From Chryseobacterium gleum (lineage in GTDB: Bacteria; Bacteroidota; Bacteroidia; Flavobacteriales_C; GCA-002722245), in NCBI GenBank assembly GCA_945871895.1, contig CAMBXP010000001.1, positions 373-64,372 on the forward strand: 64,000 nucleotides of DNA. The letters are read 5' to 3'. Positions 16,467 to 36,045 of the stretch are shown piece by piece (within the stretch, counting starts at the first letter, position 1; each line of letters opens with the position of its first letter). The notes under the pieces were generated by a model, which saw only the letters and a list, made by a program, of their open reading frames with translations, made no database searches and was not told where the DNA came from. The translations under genes were made by a program, and so were the position numbers.

Positions 16467-16535
16467 GCCCTCTTTTTTTACATTGATTATTAGACTATAA
16501 TTCACTATTTTCGCGCACGAACAATCGTTAGTGAG

Positions 16536-17666: not shown

Positions 17667-18186
17667 AAGTTTTTTCGTTATATCCTTTGAACTGCTCATG
17701 AATGTGCTGTTTGCTTTGCCGCGTTACCGATTTTTCATTTTTTTCAAAAAAACTTTGCTGCAAATCATGGGGGCAAAGGTGGGAAAGAAGGTTTGCATTT
17801 ATCCAGGTGTTTGGATTACGCCTGGCAGAAACTTGGTGATAGAAGACGAGGTAGATTTAGCCAAAGATGTTTTAATTACCACTTCTGGTGGTGTGTTTAT
17901 TGGCAAAAGAACATTGGTAGGTTATCGCACACAAATTCTTTCGTCGAATCATACCATTCCGACTGTAGGAGAAGCTTTTCCCATTTCGGGAGATAAACAT
18001 ACACCCATTCACATTGCCAATGATGTGTGGATTGGCGCAAATTGCGTGATTACAGCTGGAGTGACCATTGGAGAAGGCGCGGTGATTGCTGCCGGTAGTG
18101 TGGTGACCAAAGATGTGCCCGAAAATGCTATTGTAGGTGGAGTGCCTGCCAAATTAATAAGATATAGAGAAAACAGTAAAATATGA
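17638..18186 (+). CDS. Left-handed beta-helix (hexapeptide) acetyltransferase, WcaF/LacA-like
   Basis: Repeated [LIV]G-x4 hexapeptides ([30 protein letters not shown]). Confidence 0.8.
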
Positions 18187-19933: not shown

Positions 19934-19936
19934 GTT

Positions 19937-20695
19937 ATGTTGCGCTCTAGAATAATTCCTAGTTTATTGGTTCACAAAAAAGGCTTGGTGAAAACCGTAA
20001 ATTTTAAAGACCCCAAATATGTGGGTGACCCAATCAATGCGGTTAAAATTTTCAATGAAAAGGAAGTAGATGAGTTGATTGTGTTAGATATTGATGCTAC
20101 CGTAAACAAGAAAGAGCCCGACTTCGAAATGATTAAAAATTTGGCAGCTGAATGCAGAATGCCCTTTTGTTATGGTGGCGGTGTTACTTCGGTAGAACAC
20201 GCCAAAAAAATTATTAAACTGGGTGCAGAAAAAGTGGCTTTAAGTGCCGCGGCTATTGCTAATCCTGAGTTGGTGACCAAGATATCTGAAGAGATAGGTG
20301 CGCAAAGTGTAGTGGTGGTTTTAGATGTAAAGAAGAAAGGTTTGTTTGGGAAATACGAGGTGTTTACGCACAACGGAACCAAAGCTACAGGAAAATCTCC
20401 GTTTGAATTGGCCGAAGATTTTGAGCGCCGAGGAGTTGGTGAAATTGTATTGAACAATATTGATACTGAAGGCACTATGAAAGGCTTCGATTTTAAATTG
20501 ATTGATGGTGTGCGCGAGATCATTTCAAAGCCTATGACGGTGTTGGGTGGCGCAGGAGATGCAGAGGATATTAAAAAGGTAATTGATAAATATAAAATCA
20601 TTGGTGTGGCTGCAGGAAGCCTTTTTGTTTTTAAAGGAAAATACCGTGCGGTGCTCATTAATTACACGCCTTACAATTCTTTGTTTAATTTATAA
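19937..20695 (+). CDS. HisF-like cyclase subunit (O-antigen paralogue)
   Basis: TIM-barrel HisA/HisF pattern (VLDID, GGGV, VLNNIDTEGT, GGAG). Confidence 0.85.
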   Translation: MLRSRIIPSLLVHKKGLVKTVNFKDPKYVGDPINAVKIFNEKEVDELIVLDIDATVNKKEPDFEMIKNLAAECRMPFCYGGGVTSVEHAKKIIKLGAEKVALSAAAIANPELVTKISEEIGAQSVVVVLDVKKKGLFGKYEVFTHNGTKATGKSPFELAEDFERRGVGEIVLNNIDTEGTMKGFDFKLIDGVREIISKPMTVLGGAGDAEDIKKVIDKYKIIGVAAGSLFVFKGKYRAVLINYTPYNSLFNL

Positions 20696-21147
20696 TGTCG
20701 GTTTTAAAAAAAATATACAAGTATTTTATTCGCTCAAATAACGAATCGCGTTATTTGGTGATAAAGGCTTTTTTTTATTGCGCTATGGTGCGTTTTTTAA
20801 TGCTATTTGTAAAGTATAAACGTTACGAAAAACGCTTGGGAAAAAGAGGAGTAGAATCAACAGAAGAGATAAGTGCCGAGCAATTTGAGTTGGTTAAGAA
20901 AGTGCGAAATGCGGTGCTTAGTGTAAGCAAAAACACCTTGTGGGAAAGCAAGTGTATGGTGCAAGCACTCTCTGCAAAGTGGATGTTAGAGAAATACAAT
21001 ATTCCATCTACCATTTATTTTGGCATTATGAAAGACCTCGAAAATCCTTCGGAATTGAAAGCACATGCTTGGTTAAAAGTGGGCGAATATATTGCCACCG
21101 GTAGAGAAGGCCACAAAAGTTTTAAAGTGGTGAATTTTTATTCTTAA
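20695..21147 (+). CDS. Lasso peptide biosynthesis B2-like transglutaminase-fold cysteine peptidase (PF13471-like)
   Basis: 150 aa with a conserved Cys (ESKCMVQALS) and an HAW motif (KAHAWLKVGEY) spaced as in McjB-C/B2 proteins. The start overlaps the hisF-like stop codon (TAATG). Confidence 0.6.
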   Translation: MSVLKKIYKYFIRSNNESRYLVIKAFFYCAMVRFLMLFVKYKRYEKRLGKRGVESTEEISAEQFELVKKVRNAVLSVSKNTLWESKCMVQALSAKWMLEKYNIPSTIYFGIMKDLENPSELKAHAWLKVGEYIATGREGHKSFKVVNFYS

Positions 21148-22253
21148 CTGAATAAATAGGTGATAGGTCTCAACAAAGGATAGAGTATTCTTCTGCCAAA
21201 AGGAAGCTTCACAATATTCATATCTCTTAAAGGAAAAATACTCATTTGGTACAAGGTAAATTTCAAATGAGGCTTCATGAAAACGCGTTGTTTCCACTTG
21301 CTTATTTTCGAAATTTCTTTACCCGATAAAGATTTTAATCCTTGCAATACATAAGGTGCTTGCTTGTTATTTATTTTGTTCGAAAAGGCAGCAGGAATAG
21401 GCATTTCTAAAGCGACATTACATAAAGAAATAGTCCCTAAAAATAGGTTCTCAATTTTGTTTTTCTTGGCCAATTCAAATACTTCGTTTAATTCTTCTTC
21501 ATTGAATTTTTGCAGCAATAAAACAATATCAATTAACCACATCATTTTTTCCCAATAATGAATTTTACCATGCGCCATCAAATACAATAACGTGTAGGCG
21601 TTGTTCATTCTGTAGATTTTTCGATTGCAGTAATTTTCGGTAACAAGATATTCTGATGTGTCTCTGGGAATTGCTAGAATATACGGATTTTTAAACAGTT
21701 TGAAATGTACGTCTAGTTTACTTTTGGCTGGTGAAAAATAGCCTTTCTCATTGTCGATTTTTAAGAATAAGTCGTATTCTTTTGGGTTTAAATCGAAGTT
21801 CGGACTATCCAACACAAACCCTTTCTCCAATAGTATTTTTTCAAGTTTAGTAAGATCTGCTGGAGCAACACAAATGTCTACATCGGTGGAGGTGCGCATG
21901 TTGTTGTTGCCATAAATCATTTCGTTGATAGGATGCCCTTTAAACAACACCATATCTATATTATTTTCTTTTGCTAAATCAACAATCTTTAGCAAATCAG
22001 CTTGCAACAATAGATTTTTGGTGAGCGATTTTTTAGCTCTTTTTACAAGTGCTTTTTTAATATTTTCCAATTCAGGAAAACGCTCTATATGAGCGGCAAT
22101 AAAAGCATTTAGATTATTTCTTGATATGAATTGAATCAATTGATCGTGATCGTAATTCACAGCAGGTAATGGCTCTTTGGTATTGAACAGAATGGTTTTC
22201 ACTATGGCCAAAACCATTTGAAATTCGGGGGTGATATAAGAGTGTTTGTTCAA
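21144..22253 (-). CDS. Nucleotidyltransferase-fold protein of the PF14907 type that co-occurs with lasso kinase clusters
   Basis: hG-S...DVDICV pol-beta-like NTase motif, about 370 aa, next to the B2 gene. Confidence 0.5.
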   Translation of the reverse strand: MNKHSYITPEFQMVLAIVKTILFNTKEPLPAVNYDHDQLIQFISRNNLNAFIAAHIERFPELENIKKALVKRAKKSLTKNLLLQADLLKIVDLAKENNIDMVLFKGHPINEMIYGNNNMRTSTDVDICVAPADLTKLEKILLEKGFVLDSPNFDLNPKEYDLFLKIDNEKGYFSPAKSKLDVHFKLFKNPYILAIPRDTSEYLVTENYCNRKIYRMNNAYTLLYLMAHGKIHYWEKMMWLIDIVLLLQKFNEEELNEVFELAKKNKIENLFLGTISLCNVALEMPIPAAFSNKINNKQAPYVLQGLKSLSGKEISKISKWKQRVFMKPHLKFTLYQMSIFPLRDMNIVKLPFGRRILYPLLRPITYLFS

Positions 22254-22286
22254 GTTAATAAAATGCTATTTGCGAAAGTAGTTATT

Positions 22287-22502
22287 TTATATTTTCTTTT
22301 TCCCCATATGCATGATCCAGCGCATTTTGTAGTTCTTTTTAAAGGCAATTAGAAATTCTTCTTTAGTAAAATTGAAGTGATGTTGTTGAGCAAAAAGCTG
22401 AATGCTCTCAAAACTTTTATTTTGAAGTGCTTTCATGTCATTTTGAAAATCGTTGTCTTCAAATGATTTTTGGAAGAATAGAATTGCGTCTTTTTCGCAC
22501 AT
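22287..22502 (-). CDS. Nif11-like domain small protein (71 aa)
   Basis: The pattern F.K...D..FQ..MKAL......E.I...A.Q..FNFTKEEF matches the Nif11/NHLP leader consensus (..aFleKvk.D..Lqeklka...eevv.lAke.GfeFtaeEl). Confidence 0.45.
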   Translation of the reverse strand: MCEKDAILFFQKSFEDNDFQNDMKALQNKSFESIQLFAQQHHFNFTKEEFLIAFKKNYKMRWIMHMGKKKI

Positions 22503-22546
22503 TATAACTAATTTGCGCTAAAATACAATTAAAATATAAATGCCTT

Positions 22547-23719
22547 ATGGATATTGATTTTGAATCGATGGGTTTTTTACTTGATCCTCACGAAACATAC
22601 GATAAGATTTTCGCTAGCCAGCCTATATTTTATTCTCAAAAGTATGGGGCTTGGATTTTTGCTGATTTTGCTACCGTTAAGTTGGCATTAAGTGATGATG
22701 AAAACTTCGCATATAACAAAAGAATAAAGCCAGCTGGAATTCAACAAAGCAGTTCAGGCAAACTTTTGGCGAATTGGATTTTAAATCAAACAGAAGAAGA
22801 TCATAAAACATTTAAACGAATTATTGGCACTTTTTTTTCCTCAAGTGCTGTTGGTCGTTTGGAGTTATATATGCAAGAAGAAACGCGTAAGATTTGTGAC
22901 GGATTTAACGAACAAGAAATTGACTTAGCTGATGTGTATGGCAATTTTTTTCCAATGAAATTAATGACAAAGATTTTAGGACTTAGGGAAGTTGATTTTG
23001 ATGTTATCAAAAAAGCGTCAAGAATGGCCGAACATTACGCCTATTTTCCTAATACCGATAAAGACAAAAAAATATTTGAGTTTGCTGTTTTCACATTAGA
23101 GAAATTTGTTAAAAATATTCTTGAAAACAATCATTATAGTAATGACGGACTGATTCACCATTTAGCATCATTCTATAAAAATGGTGAGATTACCTTAGAT
23201 GAGTTAGTTAGCAATACAATTTTGTTTGTAATAGCTTCTATCGAAACAACGAGTTATTCCCTAAACAATGCGCTCATGTTGTTACTCAAGTATCCCGAGC
23301 AACGAGCCTTGTTTCTGCAGAATAGTGATAAAGCAAATCAATATATTGATGAGTTAATGCGCTTTGAATCTTCTGTAAGTTATGTTAGGCGTTTTGCAGT
23401 CAAAGATTTTGATATGGCAGGGAATAAAATTAAAAAAGGAGATTTGGTTTTACTACTTGTAAATGCAGCTAACCGAGACCCTCTTGTTTATAATGAACCT
23501 AATGAATTCAATCTCGAAAGAGAGCATATTAAAAATTTAGCTTTTGGGCATGGGGTGCACGTATGTTTAGGATTGCATTTAGCAAAAATGGAAATCAAAG
23601 TAGCTACTACTTATTTTTTTAATAGGTATCCAAAGTGTGAGCTAGTAAATGAAACAGTTCAGTGGAATGATAGGTTTGGCTTTAGGGGAATTGTAAAGAT
23701 GAATGTAAAACTGAATTAG
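22547..23719 (+). CDS. Cytochrome P450
   Basis: FGHGVHVCLG heme-thiolate loop, the EXXR motif (ELMRFES) and an ASIETTS I-helix. Confidence 0.9.
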   Translation: MDIDFESMGFLLDPHETYDKIFASQPIFYSQKYGAWIFADFATVKLALSDDENFAYNKRIKPAGIQQSSSGKLLANWILNQTEEDHKTFKRIIGTFFSSSAVGRLELYMQEETRKICDGFNEQEIDLADVYGNFFPMKLMTKILGLREVDFDVIKKASRMAEHYAYFPNTDKDKKIFEFAVFTLEKFVKNILENNHYSNDGLIHHLASFYKNGEITLDELVSNTILFVIASIETTSYSLNNALMLLLKYPEQRALFLQNSDKANQYIDELMRFESSVSYVRRFAVKDFDMAGNKIKKGDLVLLLVNAANRDPLVYNEPNEFNLEREHIKNLAFGHGVHVCLGLHLAKMEIKVATTYFFNRYPKCELVNETVQWNDRFGFRGIVKMNVKLN

Positions 23720-23720
23720 T

Positions 23721-25748
23721 ATGTCGGTATTACAAAATGATTTATTTAAGATTTTCAAGCAAGATATTTCTTTGCTTTCTTCGCCAGAACAGTTAAAGCA
23801 AATTGAAATAATTTCCAAGTTATTACCTCCTATTTATCGCTCTGCAATTGAAGTAAGATTGGGTGATGATGATACCGTTGATTTTCACGTTAATATAAAA
23901 ACTGAAGATGATATTTCCTCCATATTGTTGTTTTTTAAAGAGTCAGGGTTTTATGAGCAACCAAAATGGAGCCCTTTGCTACATTTTTTAGAATTGTGGG
24001 AAAGCAATACTTATGATTTCCGTCATATAATTCCAGGTATATTTTTAGAGTATGATTTGTCTAAAAATGATGAACTCTATCAGGTGCCGTCTTTGTTTGT
24101 TAAAGTTGCGGTAGAAAAATTGAGCGCACAGCAAACTTATTCTTTGATAGAAAAATTAATACTAACTGTAAAAGGCGAAGATTATTTTAATGTATTTAAA
24201 GCTTTGCTTAGGCAAATTATTTTTACTGAGAAAGATTGTAAACTAGGTTACTTAGGCTTTATGCTTTCTCGTCCTGAGGAACTTTTACGCATTAATATTT
24301 ATAAAATTACAGCAATAGAAGTTGTGCCATTTTTAGAGCGATGCGGATGGAAAGGCAATGCTGGTGTTGTGAAAGATTGGGCGAAAAAAGTATCTGTTTA
24401 CTGTGATAAATATGTAGTGAGTTTCGATCTGTACAAAGATGCGGTGTTGCCTGCTATAGGCTTGGAGTGTTTTTGGAATAAATTACCCGATGAAGAGCCA
24501 CGTTGGTCTTTATTACTCGATGAATTGATGGAGCAAAACTTATGTACTTTAAGCAAGAAATCTTTGTTTTTGGAATGGAAAAAGGAGTTACTTCCTTTCG
24601 AAACGCAACAACCTTGGCCAGAACATTTGGCGATAGAATCTTTGTTGCGAAATGAGAAAGATTTTTCGAAGATAAAACAGTTGGTGAGTCACCTAAAAAT
24701 TTCTATTTCTTCTTTGGGAGATATTTCTGCAAAAGCATATTTGGGCTATGGAAATATATGGTTAAATAATTCTAAGGAGAAGATTACTAGGTCTTTGGCT
24801 CAATGTGAAAGTAGCGAAGAATCTGCACAGAAAGCCATTCAGTTTTTACTAAGTGAGCAACAGCAGTCGGGTTTTTGGAAAGATTTTGAAATATTTAAAG
24901 GGGCAGCAGATCAATGGGTGACCGCTTATGTAGCATCTGCATTGAATGAGACGAATTCAAAGAGTGAAGTTCTAGCTGCAATCAATAGAGCGTGGTGCGC
25001 ATTGAAAGATACTTTCAGAGAGGGTGAAGGATGGGGCTATAATTTTTATACTCCTTGTGATGGAGATAGCACCGCATGGAGTTTATATCTTGCCTCATTT
25101 TGTGATCCATCATTTTATATGAGGCATAAAACGCTTATTGAAAGATATAAGGGTGCCGATGGTTTGCTGACTACCTATGTTGACGAAGAGGATATATTGC
25201 GTTACATAAACCTTCAACCTGAATCGGGAATACTGGGTTGGAACTCTTCTCACCTTTGTATTTCAGGTGTTGCAGCGAAATTGGAGGGATCTTGTTCCAT
25301 TGAAGCTATAGCAAGTAAGCAAAACGAGCAGGGCTATTGGCAGGGCTATTGGTGGCAGCACCATAGCTACACTACTTACTATTGTTTGAAAGCCTTAATG
25401 GCAGAAGATAGTAAGTTTGATGGGCAAATCAATAAGGCAAGAAGGTGGTGGAGAGAGCAAGATTTTGCATCAATAGACAGCATTTTTTATCGTGCGTTAT
25501 GGGTTGAAATTGGATTGTTACTTAGAGAAGATAAAAGTATTATTGATAATGCCATAGCCTCTATTATGAAGGAGCAATTGGTGAGCGGATCATGGATAGG
25601 AGATGCGCGTATTATAGTGCCGATGCCCAATCATCTTTTACAAAATTCATCTTTAAGTTGGCTGAAGCATGATGTGAATGGTATTTTCACTACAGCTACT
25701 TGTTTACGTTTGTTAACGAATTACCAAAATCATTATGGAAAAAAGTAA
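23721..25748 (+). CDS. Two-domain protein: unknown N-terminal about 350 aa plus a C-terminal prenyltransferase/squalene-oxidase-repeat (QW-motif alpha/alpha-toroid) domain
   Basis: C-terminal repeats QQQSGFWKD, NEQGYWQGYWWQHH and QLVSGSWIGD resemble terpene-cyclase QW motifs. There are only 2 nt between the P450 stop and this start. Confidence 0.5.
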   Translation: MSVLQNDLFKIFKQDISLLSSPEQLKQIEIISKLLPPIYRSAIEVRLGDDDTVDFHVNIKTEDDISSILLFFKESGFYEQPKWSPLLHFLELWESNTYDFRHIIPGIFLEYDLSKNDELYQVPSLFVKVAVEKLSAQQTYSLIEKLILTVKGEDYFNVFKALLRQIIFTEKDCKLGYLGFMLSRPEELLRINIYKITAIEVVPFLERCGWKGNAGVVKDWAKKVSVYCDKYVVSFDLYKDAVLPAIGLECFWNKLPDEEPRWSLLLDELMEQNLCTLSKKSLFLEWKKELLPFETQQPWPEHLAIESLLRNEKDFSKIKQLVSHLKISISSLGDISAKAYLGYGNIWLNNSKEKITRSLAQCESSEESAQKAIQFLLSEQQQSGFWKDFEIFKGAADQWVTAYVASALNETNSKSEVLAAINRAWCALKDTFREGEGWGYNFYTPCDGDSTAWSLYLASFCDPSFYMRHKTLIERYKGADGLLTTYVDEEDILRYINLQPESGILGWNSSHLCISGVAAKLEGSCSIEAIASKQNEQGYWQGYWWQHHSYTTYYCLKALMAEDSKFDGQINKARRWWREQDFASIDSIFYRALWVEIGLLLREDKSIIDNAIASIMKEQLVSGSWIGDARIIVPMPNHLLQNSSLSWLKHDVNGIFTTATCLRLLTNYQNHYGKK

Positions 25749-26016
25749 AGGGCTTTCGCAATCAAAACACACTCATTATTTTGCTATACCCACTTAAATT
25801 CCTGCTTTAATAATAAATATCCTTCTTCACCTTTGTTGGGGATTTTTTATTGTTACCATAATTATAGTAAATGGTGAAGCCCTTATGGTCGTTCCTTTAT
25901 ATTATTTTATGGAACTACCTTTCATCCAACTTGGAAAGTACTAAATAAAAAAGCATCTCGAAAATTAATAAGTACCGATATCAAAGTTTTTTTTATCTTA
26001 GCCAAAAATTACAATT

Positions 26017-26127
26017 ATGGAAAACAAGAAAACTTGGGTTAGTCCCCAATTTAATTTAGTGGATGTAGATTCAACGGCTTCTGGACCCTTTGGAACTTCG
26101 GTGGAATCAGGATCATACGGTTCATAA
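26017..26127 (+). CDS. Candidate lasso peptide precursor (36 aa), MENKKTWVSPQFNLVDVDSTASGPFGTSVESGSYGS; not in the ORF track
   Basis: ATG at 26017 and TAA at 26125. It has Thr at -2 of the putative leader/core junction (..DSTA|SGPFGTSVE..). The core SGPFGTSVE with Glu9 parallels the paeninodin core AGPGTSTPD with Asp9. The C-terminal Ser sits immediately upstream of the HPr-kinase-like gene. Confidence 0.5.
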   Translation: MENKKTWVSPQFNLVDVDSTASGPFGTSVESGSYGS

Positions 26128-26187
26128 TACAGAAGATTCTAGTTGTTGGTGTGGAGGAAATTTTCCATACTTGTTTAGTCGAATTTT

Positions 26188-27096
26188 TTGTATTTTCGCC
26201 CCATGCAAAAAAAGTACATCGCAGGGGGAATCATCATTGAAACAGATATTGAATTTCCCGAGTTAATTTTGACAGAAGGCCCAACAGATGTTGTTTTGGC
26301 TTATGGCAAAGTGCCTGGGGAGCTGCCTAATGTTAAAAATGAAAAAGCTTTGTTTTCAAGCAATGAAAACGAAGTATTGTTTAGAATGCCCGATATCGCG
26401 AGATATTTAATTGAAGGGTATTCAAAAATCACCATAGAATTAATAGACGAAAAAAGAAAAGCTGATGCTGAAAAGTATATTCTTACTTTTATTTTAGGCG
26501 TTTTATCTTTCAAAAAAGGCTTTTACCCTTTGCATGGCGGTGGCGTTATACACAACGGCGAAGCGTATTTGTTTACTGGTCATTCTGGTGCTGGTAAATC
26601 TACCACTATGGCAGGTTTGCAACAAAGAGGTTTGCAGCCCGTGGGCGACGATATAGCGAATCTTTTTGTGAAAGATGGTAAAGTATATGTTCATCCTTGT
26701 TTTCCGCGTTTTAAACTGTGGAAAGACTCATTGAATTTTTTAAATAAGAAGGGTTCTGGAGAGTATCATTTGCGCAGCGACATGGAGAAATTTTTAGTGC
26801 CTATGGGCGATGATTTTTCTATTGAACCTGTGCCAGTAAAAAGAATCTATTTGTTGGTGGAAGACCGCAATTTCGAGTATTCATTTAAGGAAATTAAAGG
26901 GAAAGAAAAATTGCAGCGTTTAAAAGTAAATAGCTACAAACCTTGGATGGTAAAAGCTTTTTCTTTGAACCAATTGCATTTCGGATTGATGAATGATATT
27001 GTGGGTAAGCTTGAAATCACAGAATATCACCGGCCGCTCGACAAAGCAAACCTTGAGAAAATGTACGATTTATTGATCGAAAACATCAAGGCCTAA
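26188..27096 (+). CDS. HPr-kinase-like serine kinase (candidate lasso peptide kinase)
   Basis: HGGGVIHNGEAYLFTGHSGAGKSTT P-loop, as in HprK C-terminal domains and lasso precursor kinases. Confidence 0.6.
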   Translation: MYFRPMQKKYIAGGIIIETDIEFPELILTEGPTDVVLAYGKVPGELPNVKNEKALFSSNENEVLFRMPDIARYLIEGYSKITIELIDEKRKADAEKYILTFILGVLSFKKGFYPLHGGGVIHNGEAYLFTGHSGAGKSTTMAGLQQRGLQPVGDDIANLFVKDGKVYVHPCFPRFKLWKDSLNFLNKKGSGEYHLRSDMEKFLVPMGDDFSIEPVPVKRIYLLVEDRNFEYSFKEIKGKEKLQRLKVNSYKPWMVKAFSLNQLHFGLMNDIVGKLEITEYHRPLDKANLEKMYDLLIENIKA

Positions 27097-27965: not shown

Positions 27966-28039
27966 ACTAAAATGCCCCCTTTTTCATTTGATTGTGCGGT
28001 GGAAAAAAAGATTTGAATACAATAAAATAAACGAAAAAG

Positions 28040-29863
28040 ATGTCTAGTATTTACGGTTACACAGGAAAAAAAGAAGCCCAAAAATTGATGAGTAATGCCT
28101 TACGTCATTGGCAGCCCGATCGAGAAAATTTTATAGAACGCGAAGCCTTTACTTTGGGCGCATTAGAGCTTTTCAAAACACCCGAATGTCCGCTTGTTGC
28201 GCTGCCTTATGCCTATAAAAATTTCCACATAGTAGCAGATTGTAGAATAGATAATCGTGAGGAGTTGGCAAAGGAATTAGGTGTTAGCGACATTTCAAAA
28301 CACAGTGACATCGAATTTATTGCGCGTGCATATGAGAAGTATGGAGAGGATGCGCCAAAGAAATTAAAGGGAGATTTTGCCTTTGTCATTTGGGATGAAA
28401 GTAATCAAGAGCTTTTCGCTGCTACAGATCACTTTGGTGTTCGAACTTTGTATTATACAGTAGTTGAAAATCAATTGATTTTTGCTAGTGAAATGAAGGG
28501 GATTTTGGCCTATCCTACTTTCAAAAAAGAGTACAATGAAGCCTATATCGTAAGTCAGTTTTCTGCCTTGCAAATTCCTATTCAAGATACCTTTTATTTG
28601 AATTTGTTTTTGCTTCCTCCAGCGCATCATTTTACTTTTAAAAACGGCAAATTAGACCAAAAAAAATATTGGACATTAGGAGATACTGTTGTTGAAATAC
28701 CCGCTACTGTTGCCCAGCAAGAAGCCGAATTTAATCGATTGGCTTATCAAAGTGTTCGCTCACGATTACGCAGTTACAAAAAAATTGGTGCCGAGGTGAG
28801 TGGAGGGTTGGATTCTACAGGTATTGCTGCTGCGGCTATGGAGATTTTAGGTAAGGGGCACCCTTTTTATTCTTATTGTTATGGTAAGCCCGATGTTTCT
28901 GCGGGAGATCACGACCAAAAAGACGATACCCATGTAGTGCGTGAGATGTGTAAAAAATACGATATTGAGCAATATTTCACGGTGGTGAATGAGAAAGATT
29001 TGTTAGCTGATGATTTATTGAAGACAATGTGCACTGTTTACGATGATATAGAGAGCAATGGTGTGCCTTTGTTTACCGCTTCATTTTTGCCACACGCTCA
29101 GAAAAATGATGTTGGTATTATGTTTTCGGGATGGGCTGGAGACCAAATGGTAACCGATACCTGTGGTGGTTTTCCTGAAGCTTTGGCGTACGAAAAAAAC
29201 TATATAGGTTTGTGGAAAGATATTATTCGTAGGCATAATTTTGTAGGCAGTGTTGCACGTTTTTGGGTGTATGCTATTAAGTGCTGGAACAGCAAAGGTT
29301 TTTACAATCTCAATGTAGATAAGCAAAGAAAACTGTTGCAAGATTTTCATTTAAAAAAGTCATTTATTCAAAAATACAAATTAGACACATTACCAGGGTT
29401 GCGTTATTATTTAAAAAGTTGTACCGACATACGTACTTATCATTTTCGCAATCTTCAACATGCTGGTATTCAAAAACGAACTTGTGATCATGTGTTAATG
29501 GGCAAGCACTTTAAAGTAGATTATCGTTTTCCTATGTTGGATTTAAATTTCTTGGAATACATTAATTGTTTGCCTTTTGATACCATCGCGCCGAAGGGGA
29601 AAAATAGGTATCTGTACAAACAATTTGCTGCACCATTGGTACCACAGGAATTACTTAGAGTACATAAAAGCAAAGTGCCTACGACACCCTTTGCTTATAA
29701 GTACATGAAGGATAATTTGCCTTTTTTTATAGAACAATACAAATCGTTGGAAAAAAGTACGTTTAATGATTTTGTGGATTCTTCATCGTTAGATGTTGAT
29801 TCAGGCAATTCAAATCACAAAGAGTATTTGCGCATGTATTTCTTTGCTAAAAAGATGCGTTAG
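28040..29863 (+). CDS. Asparagine-synthetase-like lasso cyclase (lasso C protein)
   Basis: AsnB-like N-terminal domain without the Cys2 nucleophile (MSSIYGY) and the SGGLDS PP-loop. Length about 600 aa. Confidence 0.75.
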   Translation: MSSIYGYTGKKEAQKLMSNALRHWQPDRENFIEREAFTLGALELFKTPECPLVALPYAYKNFHIVADCRIDNREELAKELGVSDISKHSDIEFIARAYEKYGEDAPKKLKGDFAFVIWDESNQELFAATDHFGVRTLYYTVVENQLIFASEMKGILAYPTFKKEYNEAYIVSQFSALQIPIQDTFYLNLFLLPPAHHFTFKNGKLDQKKYWTLGDTVVEIPATVAQQEAEFNRLAYQSVRSRLRSYKKIGAEVSGGLDSTGIAAAAMEILGKGHPFYSYCYGKPDVSAGDHDQKDDTHVVREMCKKYDIEQYFTVVNEKDLLADDLLKTMCTVYDDIESNGVPLFTASFLPHAQKNDVGIMFSGWAGDQMVTDTCGGFPEALAYEKNYIGLWKDIIRRHNFVGSVARFWVYAIKCWNSKGFYNLNVDKQRKLLQDFHLKKSFIQKYKLDTLPGLRYYLKSCTDIRTYHFRNLQHAGIQKRTCDHVLMGKHFKVDYRFPMLDLNFLEYINCLPFDTIAPKGKNRYLYKQFAAPLVPQELLRVHKSKVPTTPFAYKYMKDNLPFFIEQYKSLEKSTFNDFVDSSSLDVDSGNSNHKEYLRMYFFAKKMR

Positions 29864-29902
29864 TGCATAATTGATAGAAAGTTAGAAAATTCTCTTATTT
29901 TT

Positions 29903-30193
29903 GTGGAAAATCAACTTGATATGGAATTGACTCAAAAAATCGCTCGCAGTGATAATTTCGTTTTTAACGAGGTAGATGGCGAGTTAGTAATGATGAATAT
30001 TGAAACTGGTGCTTATGCATCATTGAATGAAACAGGGAAATCAATTTGGACTTTGTTAGATGCCCCTAAAAGTTTATCTGAAGTAGTTAGTTCTTTGGTT
30101 GAAGAATACGAAATCGATCAAGCTACTTGTGAAAAAGAGGTGTTGCCATTTGTAGAAAATATGTTGAAAAGTGAAGTTTTAATAAAAGCATAA
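29903..30193 (+). CDS. PqqD-family RiPP recognition element (lasso B1 protein)
   Basis: 96 aa with the FNEVDGELVMMNIETGAYASLNETGKSIWTLL pattern typical of PqqD/B1 proteins. Confidence 0.7.
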   Translation: MENQLDMELTQKIARSDNFVFNEVDGELVMMNIETGAYASLNETGKSIWTLLDAPKSLSEVVSSLVEEYEIDQATCEKEVLPFVENMLKSEVLIKA

Positions 30194-30315
30194 TAATGGA
30201 AATGAATAATGTAAAGAAAGTTTGGATTTCGCCAGCTTTTACCCAAGAGTTATTGATTAACACTAATAAACTCCCCAATGCTATAGAAACCACCACTTCT
30301 TTTAGTACCTGATGC

Positions 30316-31224
30316 ATGTATCGCTATCGAATTCAATCATTAAATGAAAAACAGCAGAATCTTTCTGCTGTTTTTGTTGATGCCCATATCAAAGAAATTG
30401 AAACCTGTATTAAAGGTATAAGAGATGTTTTTGATGTGCTTTGGAGTACTTCTACAATTGATTCTTCTTACCCTTCCATTTCACAAGAAATTCAAACTTA
30501 TAAATCCCGACAAAGAAAAAATGATTTAGCGCTTTATCCTGTTGGTTTTTGCTATCCTATTACTCAGTTTTGTTTTAAAATATTACATCAAAACCTTCAA
30601 GAAAATACGCAACATATTGTACAGCGCTATTTGGATGAGGGTGGTGTTTTGAAAATTATTTGGGGTGATTTACGCGGTGAATATTTTCAAACAGCAATAC
30701 AGTTAGGCGATTGGTACATTGATTTGGCGTACGATGCGATAGATAGAAATAAACCTAAAATTCGTTGCGCTCGTTTTCATGAATCTGACTTTAAAGACAT
30801 CACTTCTTTTCAGCAGTATATTTGTATTAAAGAACAGTACCATAAAGGAGAAATATATATAAACAATATTCTACCCGAATTATTTCCTCATTTTCCTTTT
30901 ATTTTTGAGAATACTGAAGGGCGAATTTCGATAGAGGAATCTGAATATGTGCGCGCTTTGTTGGAGGACAAAGATACAGATGTGCTGACAAGCTATCTCC
31001 GTGATGAATCGGCTTTGAAATTTCTTGATCTTGAGCAAAAGGAAAGAATTAAATCGGCATTGTCGAAAATTGGCGAAGCTTATGTTTACTTTCCCTTCTT
31101 ACAATTTAAAGAATTAGATACGAGCCAATTACTTGCTAAAATTGAAAAAGAAAAAATTAATTCAATGCCCTCTGTTTTACCTAAAGTGGTGAACAACATC
31201 AATTTCATGCTTTCACTATGTTGA
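30316..31224 (+). CDS. Hypothetical protein (302 aa) inside the RiPP cluster
   Basis: No family recognised from sequence. Same strand as the C and B1 genes. Confidence 0.3.
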   Translation: MYRYRIQSLNEKQQNLSAVFVDAHIKEIETCIKGIRDVFDVLWSTSTIDSSYPSISQEIQTYKSRQRKNDLALYPVGFCYPITQFCFKILHQNLQENTQHIVQRYLDEGGVLKIIWGDLRGEYFQTAIQLGDWYIDLAYDAIDRNKPKIRCARFHESDFKDITSFQQYICIKEQYHKGEIYINNILPELFPHFPFIFENTEGRISIEESEYVRALLEDKDTDVLTSYLRDESALKFLDLEQKERIKSALSKIGEAYVYFPFLQFKELDTSQLLAKIEKEKINSMPSVLPKVVNNINFMLSLC

Positions 31225-31227
31225 TAT

Positions 31228-32430
31228 TTACAACAATTCAATTTCGCTTTTCAACTTTTTCAATTCATATTTAAGGGAGATTTCGTCTCCCTTTTTTACG
31301 TTTTTTACTTTGGGTAAATAGAATATTTTTAATCCCCAATGGTTGTCTTCATTTATTTTATTTTGTGCTAAAGATAGTGTGTTTTCTTCGCTCAGTGTCG
31401 CTTCAAAATAAACATGAATTCCGTTCAATTCTCCTTCTTTATCTATGGTTATTTGATGCGTACTTAATTTTTGAAAATCAGTCTTTTCATCGAAATGTAC
31501 ATCTATTACTTTAAGAGGAGAAGATAAAGCCTTGCATTTCTTTAAATCTACATTACTCATGTTTAGCAGAACTGGCTTTTCATCAACATAATTTTGAAAA
31601 GCAGAGAAATCAACCTGGTAATCTTTTTTCCAGGTTTTGATGTTGTTTTCGTGCACCAAACTATTGGTGTATTTTTCATTGGGCATTTCAAAAGTTTGTA
31701 AGTAAATCGCTATGCTTTCAGGAATCAGTTTTGCCTTGGGCGTTAACAATCGCTTTTTAGCATCTTCAAAAGTGCCTAATATACCTTCGTCGAACGCGTC
31801 GTTTCCAATAATTTCACTAATTAAAACACTAGCCTTTTCGGGCAGCTCTATATCTCTAGAATCCCCTTTAATTAAAGTGATTTTATCTTCTAAACCGTTG
31901 GCTTTAAATACTGCCCTGGCTACCTCAATAAACTCGGTTCTTTCTATTGCATAAACATGTTTTGCACCGCACATCGCCGCTGTAGCCGCTAAAATACCGT
32001 TGCCAGTTCCTATATCTAAAACAATATCATTGGGTGTTACTTTAGCCCGAATGGCTTTTTGAAAAGCTAAGGTGCGCGTTTTGTCATTCAACATTCTTAC
32101 ATGAACAGGAAATGAATCAAACTTACTACCGTGAAAACTAAAGGTATTTTTTGCTTCGTCTTTCACATCAAAAAATCCTTTTTTTAATAGCTCATGAAAG
32201 TTGCTGCTTACGCCAAAAAAATCATTTTTGTGTTTGCATTTTTCGGCCATTAATTTAGTGCCTTCTTCAATGCTTTTCCATTTGCTAAAAATATCAAGAA
32301 TAATGAGTGAAGCGTAGTTTAAAGGCAATTTCTGTTGATCGAATTTTACTACCCAGCCGAGTTCAGTAAATTCAACTTTTAAGCCTTTTTTAAAACGAAT
32401 GATATCTTTCTTATTCATAAAGACAAACAT
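31228..32430 (-). CDS. Class I SAM-dependent methyltransferase, PRMT-like
   Basis: VLDIGTGNGILAATAAMCGA motif I, a post-I acidic residue (YAIE), and the SEI/THW-like region of protein arginine MTases. Confidence 0.65.
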   Translation of the reverse strand: MFVFMNKKDIIRFKKGLKVEFTELGWVVKFDQQKLPLNYASLIILDIFSKWKSIEEGTKLMAEKCKHKNDFFGVSSNFHELLKKGFFDVKDEAKNTFSFHGSKFDSFPVHVRMLNDKTRTLAFQKAIRAKVTPNDIVLDIGTGNGILAATAAMCGAKHVYAIERTEFIEVARAVFKANGLEDKITLIKGDSRDIELPEKASVLISEIIGNDAFDEGILGTFEDAKKRLLTPKAKLIPESIAIYLQTFEMPNEKYTNSLVHENNIKTWKKDYQVDFSAFQNYVDEKPVLLNMSNVDLKKCKALSSPLKVIDVHFDEKTDFQKLSTHQITIDKEGELNGIHVYFEATLSEENTLSLAQNKINEDNHWGLKIFYLPKVKNVKKGDEISLKYELKKLKSEIELL

Positions 32431-32466
32431 AGTTTAAAATTTTAAAAAATTCCCGACTTTTGCCGC

Positions 32467-34125
32467 ATGCAAAAACTTAAGGCGGTACTTTCCTTTTTCC
32501 AATTGATGCTTTCCCACTTTCGGTGGAAGGTTATTCTCATTATACTTTTAGGAATTTCATTTTCTGTGTTTCAAGGTGTTGGTATCGTAATGGTGATACC
32601 GCTCTTAGAAGCTTTTCAGCACAAGGCCAAATCGCGTTTCACTCCCTTTTTTGAGTATTTCAATTTTGAGCAAACTTTAGGCAATTTACTTTTGCTTTAT
32701 TTTTTGGTGCTGCTGATGTTCGCCATTTTTAAGGCCTTGCAGATTTTGTACACGCAGCGCACTATCTCTAAATTTTCCAACAAAATAAATATCGATTCAA
32801 TACAAAAATTGTTGCACGCCAATTGGGAGTTTTATTTAAAAGTTCCTTCTTCGCAATTGCTCAATATGCTCAATACAGAAGCGCGTCAACTGCGTTCTTT
32901 GGCCAATCAACTGTTTCAATTTATTCAAAACGTAATTTTGATTGTTATTCAATTGTTTTTTGCTTTTTGGATTTCGGCTAAACTTACCTTGGTACTAATT
33001 TTTGTTTTGGCTATTTTGTTTGTTATGCAGCGTTTTGTGTTTAGAAGGAATTACGATTTGGGCCGCGGACAAATTAAAAATTCAGAAGGAATTCAAAAGT
33101 ATTTGAACGAGACTTTTAAAGGAATCAAATTGCTTAAATTACATGGTTTAGAATTGCAACGAGGTGAGGAATATAAAGCTCATTTAGATGGCATGTACCT
33201 CAATGAAGAGAAGAAAGCAAGGATTGAGGCTATGAGCGATTTGGTATACACCTTAAGCGCATCCATGCTGCTAATTGCTATTATTTGGTATAGCTTAACT
33301 TTTACTGCTATCACCGTGGGTTCTTTGCTTATTTTGTTGGTGTTATTCTCGCGTGTTATTGCGCAAACTTTAAGTTTGGTGAAGGTGAGTTCTCATATTA
33401 CGAACATGATTCCATCTTATGTGCGGTTTACTGAGGTGTTGGCCATTGCCGAACAACACCAAAATAATTCTCCGGTGCCGAAAGATAAAATGGCTATTGA
33501 TTCCATAGAATTGCGCGATATTCATTTCGCTTTCGCCGATAAAAAAATATTAGAAGGCATTAACCTTAAATTCGAAAAAGGAAAATTTTATGTGCTAACC
33601 GGACCAAGCGGTGTGGGTAAAACCATTACTTCCGATTTGATTTGCGGACTAATTACTCCCAAAAGTGGCGATATTTTAATCAACGGAGAAGTAAAATCTA
33701 CCGAAGAATTAAAATACTATCAGTCTTCTACTTCTTACGTTTTGCAAGATACTGTGATGTTTGGTTCTACCGTAAAAGCGAATATTACTTTCTTTGAGAA
33801 GTACAGTGACGATGAAATTAATGCCGCAGTAGATAAAGCCGGCTTGCGCAGTTTACTTGATAAATTACCCGATGGTTTAGATAGCGAAGTAAAAGAAGAC
33901 AATCGCGGTTTCTCGGGCGGCGAACTTCAACGCATGGCTATCGCTCGCGCCATCATTAGAAAAACTCCGCTTATCATTTTAGATGAGGTAACGAATACAC
34001 TCGACAGAAAAAATGAAGACATTATTTTGGCTACCATCAACAACATCAAAAAAGATGGAATTGTGGTGCTGATTACACATAAAGAATATTTGTTTGATTT
34101 GGCTGATGAGGTGGTGAGACTGTAG
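32467..34125 (+). CDS. ABC exporter with fused TMD and NBD (lasso D-type candidate)
   Basis: Six N-terminal TM helices, Walker A GPSGVGKT, signature FSGGELQR and Walker B ILDEVT. Confidence 0.85.
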   Translation: MQKLKAVLSFFQLMLSHFRWKVILIILLGISFSVFQGVGIVMVIPLLEAFQHKAKSRFTPFFEYFNFEQTLGNLLLLYFLVLLMFAIFKALQILYTQRTISKFSNKINIDSIQKLLHANWEFYLKVPSSQLLNMLNTEARQLRSLANQLFQFIQNVILIVIQLFFAFWISAKLTLVLIFVLAILFVMQRFVFRRNYDLGRGQIKNSEGIQKYLNETFKGIKLLKLHGLELQRGEEYKAHLDGMYLNEEKKARIEAMSDLVYTLSASMLLIAIIWYSLTFTAITVGSLLILLVLFSRVIAQTLSLVKVSSHITNMIPSYVRFTEVLAIAEQHQNNSPVPKDKMAIDSIELRDIHFAFADKKILEGINLKFEKGKFYVLTGPSGVGKTITSDLICGLITPKSGDILINGEVKSTEELKYYQSSTSYVLQDTVMFGSTVKANITFFEKYSDDEINAAVDKAGLRSLLDKLPDGLDSEVKEDNRGFSGGELQRMAIARAIIRKTPLIILDEVTNTLDRKNEDIILATINNIKKDGIVVLITHKEYLFDLADEVVRL

Positions 34126-34160
34126 AATCAGAGTGAGAGTGAGAGTGAAATTTGTGTGCG

Positions 34161-34382
34161 TTAATCTGTAATGAAAATGACTTCATTATTTGAGTAGCTT
34201 AGACTTCCTTGGCGCAACATATATTCGGTTTTATGTGCTTTTACAAATTCTTCTGCGGTAAAATCGAAATTTAACTTTTTGGCTTGTTCTAAAATCTCAG
34301 AAACCTCCATATGATTGGTATCCAAAATTATTTCCTTCTTTCTCACTTTAGAGATGAATTGTACAGCGCTATTGATACTCAT
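34161..34382 (-). CDS. Nif11-like small protein, paralogue of 22287..22502
   Basis: From the internal Met: MSINSAVQFISKVRKKEIILDTNHMEVSEILEQAKKLNFDFTAEEFVKAHKTEYM. It aligns along its length with the first Nif11-like ORF (F.K., NF.FT.EEF, K..Y.M). The longer track ORF 34161..34442 probably over-extends. Confidence 0.4.
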   Translation of the reverse strand: MSINSAVQFISKVRKKEIILDTNHMEVSEILEQAKKLNFDFTAEEFVKAHKTEYMLRQGSLSYSNNEVIFITD

Positions 34383-34596
34383 GATGAAATTTATGCAGAG
34401 CCAGGGTGGCCATGGTGGTGGTGAATAAATTGTTTTGATCAATTAAGAAGTTAGCCGTCCCATCATTTTTAAGCATTTGAGCGTCGCCCCTCCAATTACC
34501 TTTTTCTGTTTGGTGTTGTAAGATGAATTCAACAATGGGTTCGATATTGAACGCAGATAGTTTGCAATGCATAGCACTTAAGGTGAGCAGCGACAA
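34369..34596 (-). pseudogene. Remnant of a second QW-repeat gene: a 75-aa ORF homologous to the last 65 aa of the 23721..25748 protein
   Basis: FILQHQTEKGNWRGDAQ...LFTTTMATLALHKFHHEY aligns with SIMKEQLVSGSWIGDAR...IFTTATCLRLLTNYQNHY at the C-terminus of the 675-aa protein. Confidence 0.4.
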
Positions 34597-34685
34597 ATGA
34601 AAAATATTTTGATTGTTTTCGCTGTTTATTATTTGTCTGCCAAATTACATATTTTCAATTCGAATATTTACCTATATTCGATTGT

Positions 34686-35855
34686 ATGAATTTTGCACAA
34701 ATTATACATCCTATTTCTGTCGAAGAGTTCTTCAACGATTACTACGAAAAGAAGCCTTTATACATTGCGCGCAGCAACGCTTCTTATTATCATACTTTTT
34801 TAAACCTGCCTGAAATTGATTCCTACATTCAGTTGAAGCAAACATTTTCTCCCAACGTTAAAATGGCTTTTGAAGGCAAAGAAGTTTCGCCTTTGTTGTT
34901 TTGCGATAACGACAATGATGTTGCTCCGTTTAAAGCAAATCCGCAAAAAATGTTGGCTTTATTTAAGCAGGGCTATACCATAAAATACGATAAATTACAC
35001 CAAACCTATCCGCCCCTGGCAAGCAAGGTTTCTTTCTTGGAAAATGAAATAGGTTTGAAAATTCGAACGAGTTTATATATCACTCCTGAGAACTCGCAGG
35101 GCTATGGTGTTCACACCGATAGACACGATGTGTTGGCTTTACAACTCAATGGAACTAAGATTTGGAAAGTGAAATATTCAGAAGAAATTTTGCCTTCTTT
35201 ATACGACGGAAAAGTGTTGCCTACGAATTGGGAAGATGGCGCGCAAGAAATTCATTTGCAGGCTGGTGATTTTTTCTATTGTCCGCGCGGACTAGCACAT
35301 GTCGTATACACCAAAGATGAATCTTCTATTCATTACACTTTAGGTTTTCAGCCTATGTATGGCTACAAAGCCATGGAGTATTTAAGTGAGTTAGCCTATG
35401 AGAATGCTTTTTTTAGAAAAGCACTTCCCAATAAATTATTTAGTGAGGGGCAAAAGGAAAGGTTTGCCAATGAATTTAAAAATGAATTCAAAAAGTTTAT
35501 TGATGGTATTGATATCGATGCATTGCTAAACAAGAAAAGTAAAGAGAGTACTAGTTCTCTCATTGAGTTTAGCGAGAATCGTTTTTTATCTCAGTTTTAT
35601 CAGCCTAGCGCCTCAGATATTTTTATGATCAATCCAAATATTTCGTGGCAATTGAGTTTTACCAAAGTAGCCTGCCGTATTGAATTAGATGGAATTAGCA
35701 ACGACTTCCCTTTTCTTTTAAAAGATTTTTTCTCTTCTTTAAAAAATAAAACTGAATTTTCAATTCACGATATGGGAACAGAATTGAATGAGAAGCAAAA
35801 ATTGAAATTGGTTAAGCGTTTGATGAAACTGAAAATGATTGAGGTAAAAAAATAA
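34686..35855 (+). CDS. JmjC/cupin-4 family 2-oxoglutarate-dependent oxygenase-like protein
   Basis: GVHTDRHDVLALQLNGTKIWKV (H-x-D plus a double-stranded beta-helix) and a downstream H (LAHVVY), as in RoxA/YcfD-like hydroxylases. Confidence 0.55.
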   Translation: MNFAQIIHPISVEEFFNDYYEKKPLYIARSNASYYHTFLNLPEIDSYIQLKQTFSPNVKMAFEGKEVSPLLFCDNDNDVAPFKANPQKMLALFKQGYTIKYDKLHQTYPPLASKVSFLENEIGLKIRTSLYITPENSQGYGVHTDRHDVLALQLNGTKIWKVKYSEEILPSLYDGKVLPTNWEDGAQEIHLQAGDFFYCPRGLAHVVYTKDESSIHYTLGFQPMYGYKAMEYLSELAYENAFFRKALPNKLFSEGQKERFANEFKNEFKKFIDGIDIDALLNKKSKESTSSLIEFSENRFLSQFYQPSASDIFMINPNISWQLSFTKVACRIELDGISNDFPFLLKDFFSSLKNKTEFSIHDMGTELNEKQKLKLVKRLMKLKMIEVKK

Positions 35856-36045
35856 TCCTAACTGCTTAGAGAAAGGATTATTTCTTTGAATTTAATTTGA
35901 ATTAAGAAGACATTTCTGCTCTTTCTGACCCACCTGGAGATCCTGACAGAGTCTCTTCTATTTCCATTTCAGAAATTTGTGGTGCAATCCAATTTTTTTT
36001 TGCTGTTTGCATAATTGCTACTTTTTGGTAAATATAATGAAATAA

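Follow-up and report, generated by a model that had tools for sequence, protein, structure and literature searches.

What kind of peptide, and with which decorations, is made by the gene cluster at positions 20695-36012 of a 64,000-nucleotide stretch of Chryseobacterium gleum DNA (assembly GCA_945871895.1, contig CAMBXP010000001.1, positions 373 to 64,372; hereafter the window)? The open reading frames (ORFs) of the 64-kb window were listed, and gene families were assigned by scans with Pfam and NCBIfam hidden Markov models (HMMs). We conclude that the region appears to be a functional lasso-peptide cluster of the split-B, kinase-associated type (that of paeninodin and pseudomycoidin) from an uncultured, Flavobacteriales-like member of the Bacteroidota, with a probability of about 0.8 for the lasso and kinase core and a lower one for each tailoring step. 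An earlier note on the same DNA had described a heavily decorated kinase-type lasso cluster in Bacteroidetes, ending at 35855 and with a product that was probably uncharacterised. Its genes are all present where it had placed them, and the families it had named, PF13471, PF05402, PF00733, PF07475, PF00685 and PF14907 among them, were matched (PF07475 weakly, at 0.002). The general description is supported, and no characterised product for this gene combination was found in the searchable literature. The end of the cluster has been moved, since a third precursor gene lies downstream of 35855 and extends the cluster to 36012.

The canonical lasso set of B2, B1, an Asn-synthetase-like cyclase (C) and an ATP-binding cassette (ABC) exporter, as listed in the note, was confirmed by HMM matches. 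The B2 leader peptidase scored 80 bits against the lasso-specific model NF033537 (lasso_biosyn_B2, cutoff 33), with Cys87 and His124 visible in its sequence. B1, a recognition element of the kind used in pathways for peptides that are ribosomally synthesised and modified post-translationally (RiPPs), scored 66.6 bits against PF05402 (cutoff 23.4) and 79.0 bits against NF033536, just short of the curated cutoff of 80. The cyclase begins with MSSIYG, and the serine at position 2 is invariant in four related cyclases. A primary-metabolism AsnB (glutamine-dependent asparagine synthetase), which the note had kept in view for this gene, is excluded by Ser2. The exporter does not contain a C39 peptidase domain.

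Related loci were used for comparison. Eighty were collected by scanning one genome per species with an alignment of the cyclase, and the window proteins were run against them by tblastn. Loci are referred to by L numbers, the most informative being L093, from a strain ca. 99% identical to the window; L091, from a Flavobacteriales metagenome-assembled genome (MAG), the nearest named genome, where asparaginyl-tRNA synthetase is 95% and the ABC exporter 94% identical and synteny is the same; and L011, the closest genome locus, where the cyclase is 55%, the kinase 68%, the sulfotransferase 66% and B1 70% identical, and B2 and the nucleotidyltransferase are present.

Three short ORFs encode the candidate precursors A1-A3. 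A leader motif, KKxWxxPx[hydrophobic], was found near the N-terminus of only three ORFs in the window, all of them in the cluster, and did not occur in 30 shuffles. The leaders of A1-A3 follow the pattern KKxWxxPx-hydrophobic-(9 residues)-T-x, that of A2 ending in KKVWISPAFTQELLINTN directly before the core KLPNAIETTTSFST. In an alignment of 14 precursors (A1-A3, those of related Bacteroidota loci, and those of kinase-type clusters from Cohnella, Bacillus and Paenibacillus), K, W, P and the Thr at -2 were invariant, and Glu or Asp was found at core position 7-9. The cores end in Ser or Thr, as do those of nearly all precursors found in kinase-bearing loci; L011 encodes five precursors, which end in YRT, YRS, QRT or YHT, four of the five in Thr. 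With 14-15 residues, the predicted lassos are very small, and core position -3 is aromatic or bulky (Y, F or M). A1 is among the called genes of L001 and L093, A2 is conserved in L091 and L093, and positional homologues of A3 lie 3' of the JmjC gene in L011 and L091. Coordinates of all features are collected in Table 1.

Table 1. Genes, precursors and remnants of the lasso-peptide cluster, in window coordinates.
Feature	Position	Strand	Matches, motifs and remarks
B2 leader peptidase, transglutaminase-like	20695-21147	+	PF13471 4e-19; NF033537 1.4e-22
PF14907 nucleotidyltransferase	21144-22253	-	PF14907 6e-36; gene-caller start 22217
Nif11a, 71 aa, tail KKNYKMRWIMHMGKKKI	22287-22502	-	PF07862 3.9e-5, 24.3 bits against a gathering score of 23.8; divergent from the P450 gene
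Cytochrome P450	22547-23719	+	PF00067 6e-29; heme motif FGHGVHVCLG
Prenyltransferase-cyclase PC, predicted bifunctional	23721-25748	+	Weak PF13243 squalene-cyclase repeat match, 5e-7
Precursor A1	26017-26127	+	Leader MENKKTWVSPQFNLVDVDSTA, core SGPFGTSVESGSYGS; predicted S1-E9 ring; C-terminal Ser
HPr-kinase-like lasso kinase	26203-27096 (alternative start 26188)	+	P-loop GHSGAGKST, HG and DD motifs
PAPS-type sulfotransferase	27096-27965	+	PF00685 1e-24; YPKSGNTW; start overlaps kinase stop
Lasso cyclase C, Asn-synthetase-like	28040-29863	+	PF00733 and GATase_7; SGGLDS PP-loop; Ser2 replaces Cys2
B1, PqqD-type RiPP recognition element	29903-30193	+	PF05402 2.5e-18; NF033536 2.2e-22
Precursor A2	30196-30312	+	Leader MEMNNVKKVWISPAFTQELLINTN, core KLPNAIETTTSFST; predicted K1-E7 ring; C-terminal Thr
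U302, 302 aa	30316-31224	+	No family match
PRMT-like SAM methyltransferase, ca. 100-aa N-terminal extension	31228-32430	-	PRMT_C 1.5e-14
ABC exporter D, fused transmembrane and nucleotide-binding domains	32467-34125	+	PF00664 and PF00005
Relic: 75-aa C-terminal PC-paralogue fragment (34369-34596), then Nif11b (34161-34382)	34161-34596	-	
JmjC_2/cupin-4 Fe(II)/2-oxoglutarate oxygenase	34686-35855	+	PF08007 2e-20; HTD...H triad
Precursor A3	35902-36012	-	Leader MQTAKKNWIAPQISEMEIEETL, core SGSPGGSERAEMSS; predicted S1-E8 ring; C-terminal Ser; beyond the range of the earlier note

The genomic setting invites another explanation, in which the Asn-synthetase-like gene and its neighbours act on the glycan of the adjacent locus and make no RiPP at all. 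The cluster indeed abuts a full capsule/exopolysaccharide locus (window 6488-20695) with a Wza-like exporter, a flippase, PGA_cap, ATP-grasp, EpsG polymerase, GT1/GT4, acyltransferase and hexapeptide transferase genes and, at the end nearest the cluster, the acetamidino-sugar genes WbuX/HisH/WbuZ. The start codon (ATG) of B2 overlaps the stop codon of the WbuZ/HisF2-like gene, a junction that is the same in L093; L010 and L011 also lie beside glycan genes, and such loci can contain AsnB paralogues (L011, 4404-6293; L091). However, the cyclase carries Ser2 and has the lasso cyclase model as its best match, B1 and B2 match lasso-specific NCBIfam models, the lasso leader motif and its Thr(-2), both invariant, are present in three precursor ORFs, and the same gene set is found away from glycan loci in many phyla. 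We regard the polysaccharide-amidotransferase explanation as extremely improbable and effectively excluded. The adjacency could reflect a link to sugar-nucleotide supply, or just a common integration hotspot. The downstream flank contains asnS, an outer-membrane protein gene, a DUF3109 gene and ribonucleotide reductase genes. Among the relatives, the B2 gene of L011 starts where an AsnB-like gene ends, and the nucleotidyltransferase gene of L010 has GT4, epimerase and Glycos_transf_4 genes as neighbours.

The kinase, nucleotidyltransferase and sulfotransferase can be placed by their motifs and relatives. The HG...GxSGxGKS...DD core of the kinase aligns to L. casei HprK, and kinase homologues were found in 65 of the 80 lasso loci. 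Precursors that end in Ser or Thr are the hallmark of the paeninodin family, in which, according to PMC8498205, the kinase phosphorylates the C-terminal Ser. The nucleotidyltransferase scored 124.7 bits against PF14907 (threshold 31.2), the Pfam family to which PsmN belongs; homologues are present in 36 loci, with just 20-36% identity between it and other lasso-locus nucleotidyltransferases. The nearest solved structures to the sulfotransferase, which is of the 3'-phosphoadenosine-5'-phosphosulfate (PAPS) type, are those of TEG12, Teg14 and StaL (1.7e-15). Like these PAPS-dependent enzymes, which act on peptide phenols, it keeps the 5'-phosphosulfate-binding (5'-PSB) motif (YPKSGNTW) and the catalytic His (KVH, matching KxH); unlike them it would act on a ribosomal peptide, and the sequence identity is low. 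Since these are its closest solved relatives, sulfation of a peptide phenol is favoured, with Tyr13 of A1 as the best candidate. Sulfotransferase and nucleotidyltransferase genes have been noted in lasso clusters before, with the role of the sulfotransferase left unresolved (PMC8498205, PMC4289311).

Several observations count against the assignment of this core. The best NCBIfam match of the cyclase is the lasso cyclase model NF033535 (2e-74), at 251 bits and thus below the cutoff of 525. The kinase HMM matches are weak and under curated cutoffs (PF07475 0.002; TIGR04352 2e-5). Lys at core position 1 of A2 is atypical for a lasso peptide, and in the A2 homologue of L091 the Thr has moved to -3.

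The distribution of the tailoring genes among the 80 loci was uneven. Sulfotransferase homologues were found in 13 loci and all three of kinase, nucleotidyltransferase and sulfotransferase in seven; the sulfotransferase was always accompanied by the kinase (13/13) and adjoined it in each of the eight loci whose layout was inspected. This core is spread over Bacteroidota, Cyanobacteria, Chloroflexota, Acidobacteriota, Proteobacteria, Firmicutes and Methanobacterium MAGs. A PRMT-like methyltransferase was present in four loci, JmjC in two and U302 in one, and PC, P450 and Nif11 in none. Thus, the claim that the combination is unusual holds for the full tailoring set of the window, which was found in 0 of the 80 related genome loci, but not for kinase, sulfotransferase and nucleotidyltransferase together, which at seven of 80 are not special. 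As judged from sequence comparison, the tailoring genes fall into three layers: the widespread kinase/nucleotidyltransferase/sulfotransferase core, a lineage-conserved U302/PRMT/ABC/JmjC block, and a mobile Nif11/P450/PC module.

The second layer is kept at 31-94% identity in L011 and L091. In L011 the PRMT-like methyltransferase is 51%, a U302-like protein 31%, the ABC exporter 62% and JmjC 62% identical; further JmjC homologues are found in L091 (65%) and L054. U302 belongs to a seven-member orphan family, without a fold match, whose genes always lie directly 3' of an A2-type precursor. The catalytic core of the PRMT-like S-adenosylmethionine (SAM) methyltransferase aligns in full to Hmt1/PRMT1 (residues 101-385, 1.5e-29), and the motifs VLDIGTGNG, the double-E loop SEIIGNDAFDE and (N)HW are present. 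Pfam scans of sub-fragments (the N-terminal 100 aa of the PRMT-like protein, the kinase N-terminus, the JmjC C-terminus and the two halves of U302) gave no matches, and a RiPP-recognition-element-like nature of the PRMT N-terminal extension is unsupported. The extras of L011 itself (11837-14586 and 20332-21351) are different: a SAM methyltransferase, a Sulfotransfer_2 protein and an Asp/Asn beta-hydroxylase. Together with its five precursors, these different extras suggest that Bacteroidota lasso islands are hypervariable.

The third layer contains the protein that the earlier note had listed as an accessory QW-repeat toroid. Modelling and structure comparison indicate that it is instead a fusion of an ABBA/PT barrel (residues 1-345) with an MstE-like class II terpene cyclase (residues ca. 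355-675); we refer to it as the prenyltransferase-cyclase, PC. The AlphaFold2 model (pLDDT 85.5, pTM 0.75) consists of five alpha-alpha-beta-beta repeats and, C-terminal to them, an alpha/alpha toroid. In a Foldseek comparison with the PDB the C-terminal domain matched MstE (E 4e-16, 27-28% identity, TM 0.77-0.80), and the N-terminal domain matched AmbP1, EpzP, NphB/Orf2, 6-DMATS and AnaPT (E 1e-4 to 2e-3, TMt 0.5-0.59). In a phmmer search MstE was matched at 4.5e-29, with WGYNFYTPCDGDSTAW aligned to WGYNYILCGDADTTGW and WGYN..D.D(S/T)T kept; D-G-D-S-T of PC aligns with D-A-D-T-T (GDADTT) of MstE. The D-x-D-[ST]-T motif is kept in 8/8 aligned cyclase-domain homologues (P0001-P0007 and the P450-fused P0015), and the barrel-strand residues R184, R190, K279, K326, K338 and Y340 are nearly invariant. 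A LanC-like or glycosidase-like toroid is excluded by the MstE match.

The PC family is rare, with 18 matches among 5.8 billion proteins. All full-length homologues lie within lasso clusters, namely L004 (Chitinophaga dinghuensis, QLMA01000008), L006 and L010. With X standing for the PC homologue, the gene order is B1-B2-C-A-kinase-X-NTase in L004 and L006 and B2-B1-C-kinase-A-X-ABC-NTase in L010, NTase being the nucleotidyltransferase. The N-terminal half (P domain) is also found alone or fused to a SAM methyltransferase, and P0015, the single P450-fused homologue, aligns via the cyclase half. In the cyanobacterial context of L007, a P-domain gene adjoins a gene for an animal-haem peroxidase and a 113-aa Nif11-like ORF.

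The P450 has as its nearest NCBIfam models a cyclodipeptide-synthase-associated P450 and TxtE (TIGR04538 1e-45, below cutoff), and only three relatives at E<=1e-40 were found outside its own cluster. One of them, with 45% identity to the P450 of the window, is on contig P0028, where the order is a 684-aa protein, Nif11, a 38-aa ORF and the P450; the other close one is that of L093. The 75-aa fragment downstream of the exporter matches the last 65 residues of PC (608-672; BLASTP 2e-5); Nif11b, next to it, matches PF07862 at a sub-threshold 8e-4 and Nif11a at 2e-5. By sequence, this stretch is the remnant of a second PC-then-Nif11 module. The slot between the ABC and JmjC genes is variable, with the relic in the window, nothing in L011, and an MBOAT gene plus a gene for a 296-aa protein in L091. 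As a separate observation, the L091 slot (MBOAT acyltransferase, 296-aa gene) also contains a Nif11b-like remnant.

Comparison with L093 revealed where the cluster changes between strains. The whole gene arrangement is kept, and proteins are 97-100% identical except for the P450, PC and the precursor cores. L093 has another P450 allele, 49% identical to that of the window, and its PC is 93.8% identical; the A1 core SGPFGTSVESGSYGS becomes SGPYNASVESGTYGS (F4Y), and the A2 core ...TTTSFST becomes ...TTSSWST (F12W). Nif11a is 97% conserved, with an unchanged tail. In 200-nt sliding windows (window 22540-25200 against L093 3925-6600), identity was 55-70% over 22540-23820 and recovered through the P domain by ca. 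25200. These sequence patterns point to P450, PC and Nif11 as a separable, recombining module. The module is absent from L011 and L091 and is thus dispensable for the lasso core.

The following pathway is proposed. As expected from family membership, B1 would bind the conserved leader of A1-A3, B2 would cleave one residue past the invariant Thr, and the ATP-dependent cyclase C would link the new N-terminal amine to Glu7, Glu8 or Glu9, giving 14-15-residue lassos. The HprK-like kinase, if it acts like that of paeninodin, would phosphorylate the C-terminal Ser/Thr hydroxyl of the precursor, and the PF14907 nucleotidyltransferase would probably add a sugar to that phosphate, by analogy with pseudomycoidin. 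The sulfotransferase would put a sulfate on a hydroxyl, for which Tyr13 of A1 is the candidate. The PRMT-like methyltransferase, JmjC, U302 and ABC block is putatively responsible for methylation, hydroxylation and product export. Into this arrangement, between the nucleotidyltransferase and A1 genes, the Nif11/P450/PC module appears to have been inserted. By analogy with NctPC, PC would load an aromatic side chain with a long prenyl group and then cyclise this group through protonation by the Asp of DxD(S/T)T, and the P450 of the recombining PC/P450 module would add an oxidative modification.

In its fullest form, this pathway would yield the first lasso peptide or peptides with a terpenoid tail cyclised by PC in addition to phosphorylation/glycosylation and sulfation, with the P450 and the prenyltransferase domain co-diversifying with aromatic core residues in an arms-race-like, recombination-driven manner. 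We consider this full form tentative and rather unlikely. For PC alone, lasso tails with an aromatic residue at -3 are the favoured substrate and the Nif11 peptide is the alternative; the Nif11-domain protein may also be a partner or scaffold of the PC/P450 pair and not a substrate.

A number of points speak against the decorated lasso. Characterised PC enzymes prenylate Trp, and the cores of A1-A3 are without Trp; the tail of Nif11a does contain it, as does A2 of L093 (SWST). No prenyl-diphosphate synthase gene was found in the cluster. The residue at -3 may be a steric plug and not a tailoring site. Arg, the expected PRMT substrate, occurs among the cores only in A3, as well as in Nif11 tails. 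Tyr within six residues of the C-terminus was not significantly associated with presence of the sulfotransferase (15/22 versus 4/11, Fisher p=0.14). A P-domain-only homologue stands beside a Nif11 precursor in L008, and L011, the closest lasso relative, is without PC, P450 and Nif11. The modifications are all read from homology.

Some of these points bear on a different partition of the genes, which we hold to be a serious possibility: two packed RiPP pathways, in which the kinase, sulfotransferase and nucleotidyltransferase serve the lassos, which would carry no terpene or P450 change, and a separate Nif11-leader pathway has its peptide tail, KKNYKMRWIMHMGKKKI of Nif11a, cross-linked or oxidised by the P450 and prenylated and cyclised by PC. 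The peptide served by the module may, then, be a second one and not the lasso. Nif11a exceeds the Pfam gathering score, its tail is rich in Trp, Tyr and His, and the tail Trp is the only one among the candidate cores of the window; characterised PC maturases use Trp, according to PMC13290415. The PC/Nif11/P450 trio recurs on the independent contig P0028 and as the relic, the P domain of L008 lies 3' of a Nif11 precursor, and L011 has the lasso set without the module. However, the lasso clusters that contain the PC homologues of L004, L006 and L010 lack a Nif11 ORF, and their cores are free of Trp. No GG/GA cleavage motif was found in the Nif11 ORFs, Nif11a included, and no C39-peptidase ABC transporter is encoded in the cluster. 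In L093, moreover, the tail of Nif11a has not changed, whereas the P450 allele is another one, the P domain of PC diverges and the lasso aromatics change; this is the pattern to be expected of PC and P450 acting on the lasso cores. In the cyanobacterial locus L008, a YcaO/ThcOx cluster, the Nif11 precursor directly 5' of the stand-alone P domain has a CCCC-rich tail.

The relic and the recombination scars could also mean that the cluster is decaying, that it makes a simple phosphorylated lasso only, and that the extra tailoring genes are passengers or pseudogenes. The ABC-JmjC slot differs in every relative, and a search for close homologues of the P450 found none beyond this lineage, as decay would have it. 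Yet the full-length genes are intact, with the P450 Cys ligand, the JmjC HxD...H, the PRMT double-E, the cyclase-domain DxD and the sulfotransferase PSB and His all in place; intact tailoring genes are 97-100% conserved in L093, and U302, PRMT and JmjC are kept at 31-84% in more distant genomes, which implies purifying selection. Decay is improbable. We retain a functional lasso cluster, with the kinase-type core as its best-founded part.

How the decorated lasso cluster relates to known systems can be stated gene by gene. Paeninodin-type clusters (PadeK, ThcoK; Zhu et al. 2016, as reviewed in PMC8498205) are alike in the split B1/B2, the cyclase, the ABC exporter and the HprK-like kinase, and their precursors likewise have a KKxWxxP...T-x leader and a C-terminal Ser. 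In contrast, the present cluster comes from Bacteroidota and encodes three precursors, one of them Thr-ended, whose cores are much shorter (14-15 aa); its kinase is translationally coupled to a sulfotransferase, and it contains six further tailoring genes. Pseudomycoidin (PsmK and PsmN; Zyubko et al. 2019, also reviewed in PMC8498205) likewise combines a kinase with a PF14907 nucleotidyltransferase and is expected to carry a hexose on phospho-Ser; here the nucleotidyltransferase gene is on the opposite strand beside B2, and a sulfotransferase, PC, P450 and others are added. P450-tailored, biaryl-linked lasso peptides with a cluster-encoded P450 are also known (PMC10664482). They have in common with the window a P450 in a lasso cluster and available aromatic core residues, whereas their clusters are actinobacterial and the window P450 travels with a Nif11 ORF and PC, with an allele swapped between strains.

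For PC, MstE (PDB 6sbb-6sbg), a class II terpene cyclase of merosterolic acid, resembles residues 366-651 in identity, fold and the WGYN...D-x-D-(S/T)-T signature, and differs in that it stands alone and has a prenylated benzoate as its substrate; the PC domain is fused, and its substrate is presumably a prenylated peptide. The abstract of a 2024 Chem paper by Hubrich and colleagues is said to predict prenyltransferase-cyclase units for peptides of the proteusin, Nif11 and lasso classes. The closest parallel in architecture is NctPC, in which an ABBA prenyltransferase is joined to an MstE-like cyclase; it puts a geranylgeranyl chain on a Trp of a RiPP and cyclises that chain afterwards. NctPC and ChrPC are presented as prenyltransferase-cyclase RiPP maturases in a 2026 review (PMC13290415). 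Two-domain architecture and location in a RiPP cluster are common to NctPC (Hubrich et al., in PMC13290415) and the window PC, which are likened by architecture and not by sequence; NctPC acts on Trp of a cyanobacterial proteusin-type peptide, whereas the window PC is in a lasso cluster with Trp-less cores. A RiPP link also exists for the P-domain relatives, both stand-alone and fused (L008). The enzyme kind is thus known, and its association with lasso peptides has probably been anticipated but not characterised.

The enzyme kinds are all known, and lasso clusters with a kinase, nucleotidyltransferase, sulfotransferase or P450 have already been described or noted; what is new is the combination, the Bacteroidota context, PC with Trp-less lasso cores, and the presence of a PRMT homologue and of the orphan U302. 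While the natural-product class is known, the peptide itself is probably new and heavily decorated. Lasso peptides, stable scaffolds that show antibiotic and receptor-antagonist activity, have little known tailoring. Here some eight tailoring functions (kinase, sulfotransferase, nucleotidyltransferase, PC, P450, PRMT-like methyltransferase, JmjC hydroxylase and U302 as a putative enzyme) surround lassos of 14-15 residues. The cluster is therefore a compact test bed for the role of the lasso-associated sulfotransferase, noted since 2014-2016 and not resolved in the searchable literature, for PC maturases on lasso peptides and on Tyr/Phe instead of Trp, for a bacterial PRMT homologue in a RiPP pathway, and for the function of the U302 family. 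The window and L093, with their P450 allele swap and core residue changes, constitute a natural experiment.

Further observations were made on the relatives and on possible regulatory signals. In L091 the cyclase and B1 (PqqD) are fused in one 717-aa protein (3256-5409), with two more Asn-synthetase-like genes upstream, and the edge of L011 encodes a Porphyromonas-type peptidyl-arginine/agmatine deiminase. Kinase-type lasso loci with cyclase, kinase, B1, nucleotidyltransferase and ABC genes are present in Methanobacterium/Methanobacteriaceae MAGs (L030, L052, L077 and L083) and, if the binning is correct, are lasso clusters in archaea. A scan of 20000-36500 for sigma-70 promoters gave 40 sites, fewer than the 56 in shuffles, and is uninformative for Bacteroidota; terminator-like hairpins in the same interval were barely above shuffles. 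One 10-bp hairpin, a consensus match only, is found at 26148-26171, 20 nt past the A1 stop and ahead of the kinase start, and may be an attenuator that sets the ratio of precursor to enzyme.

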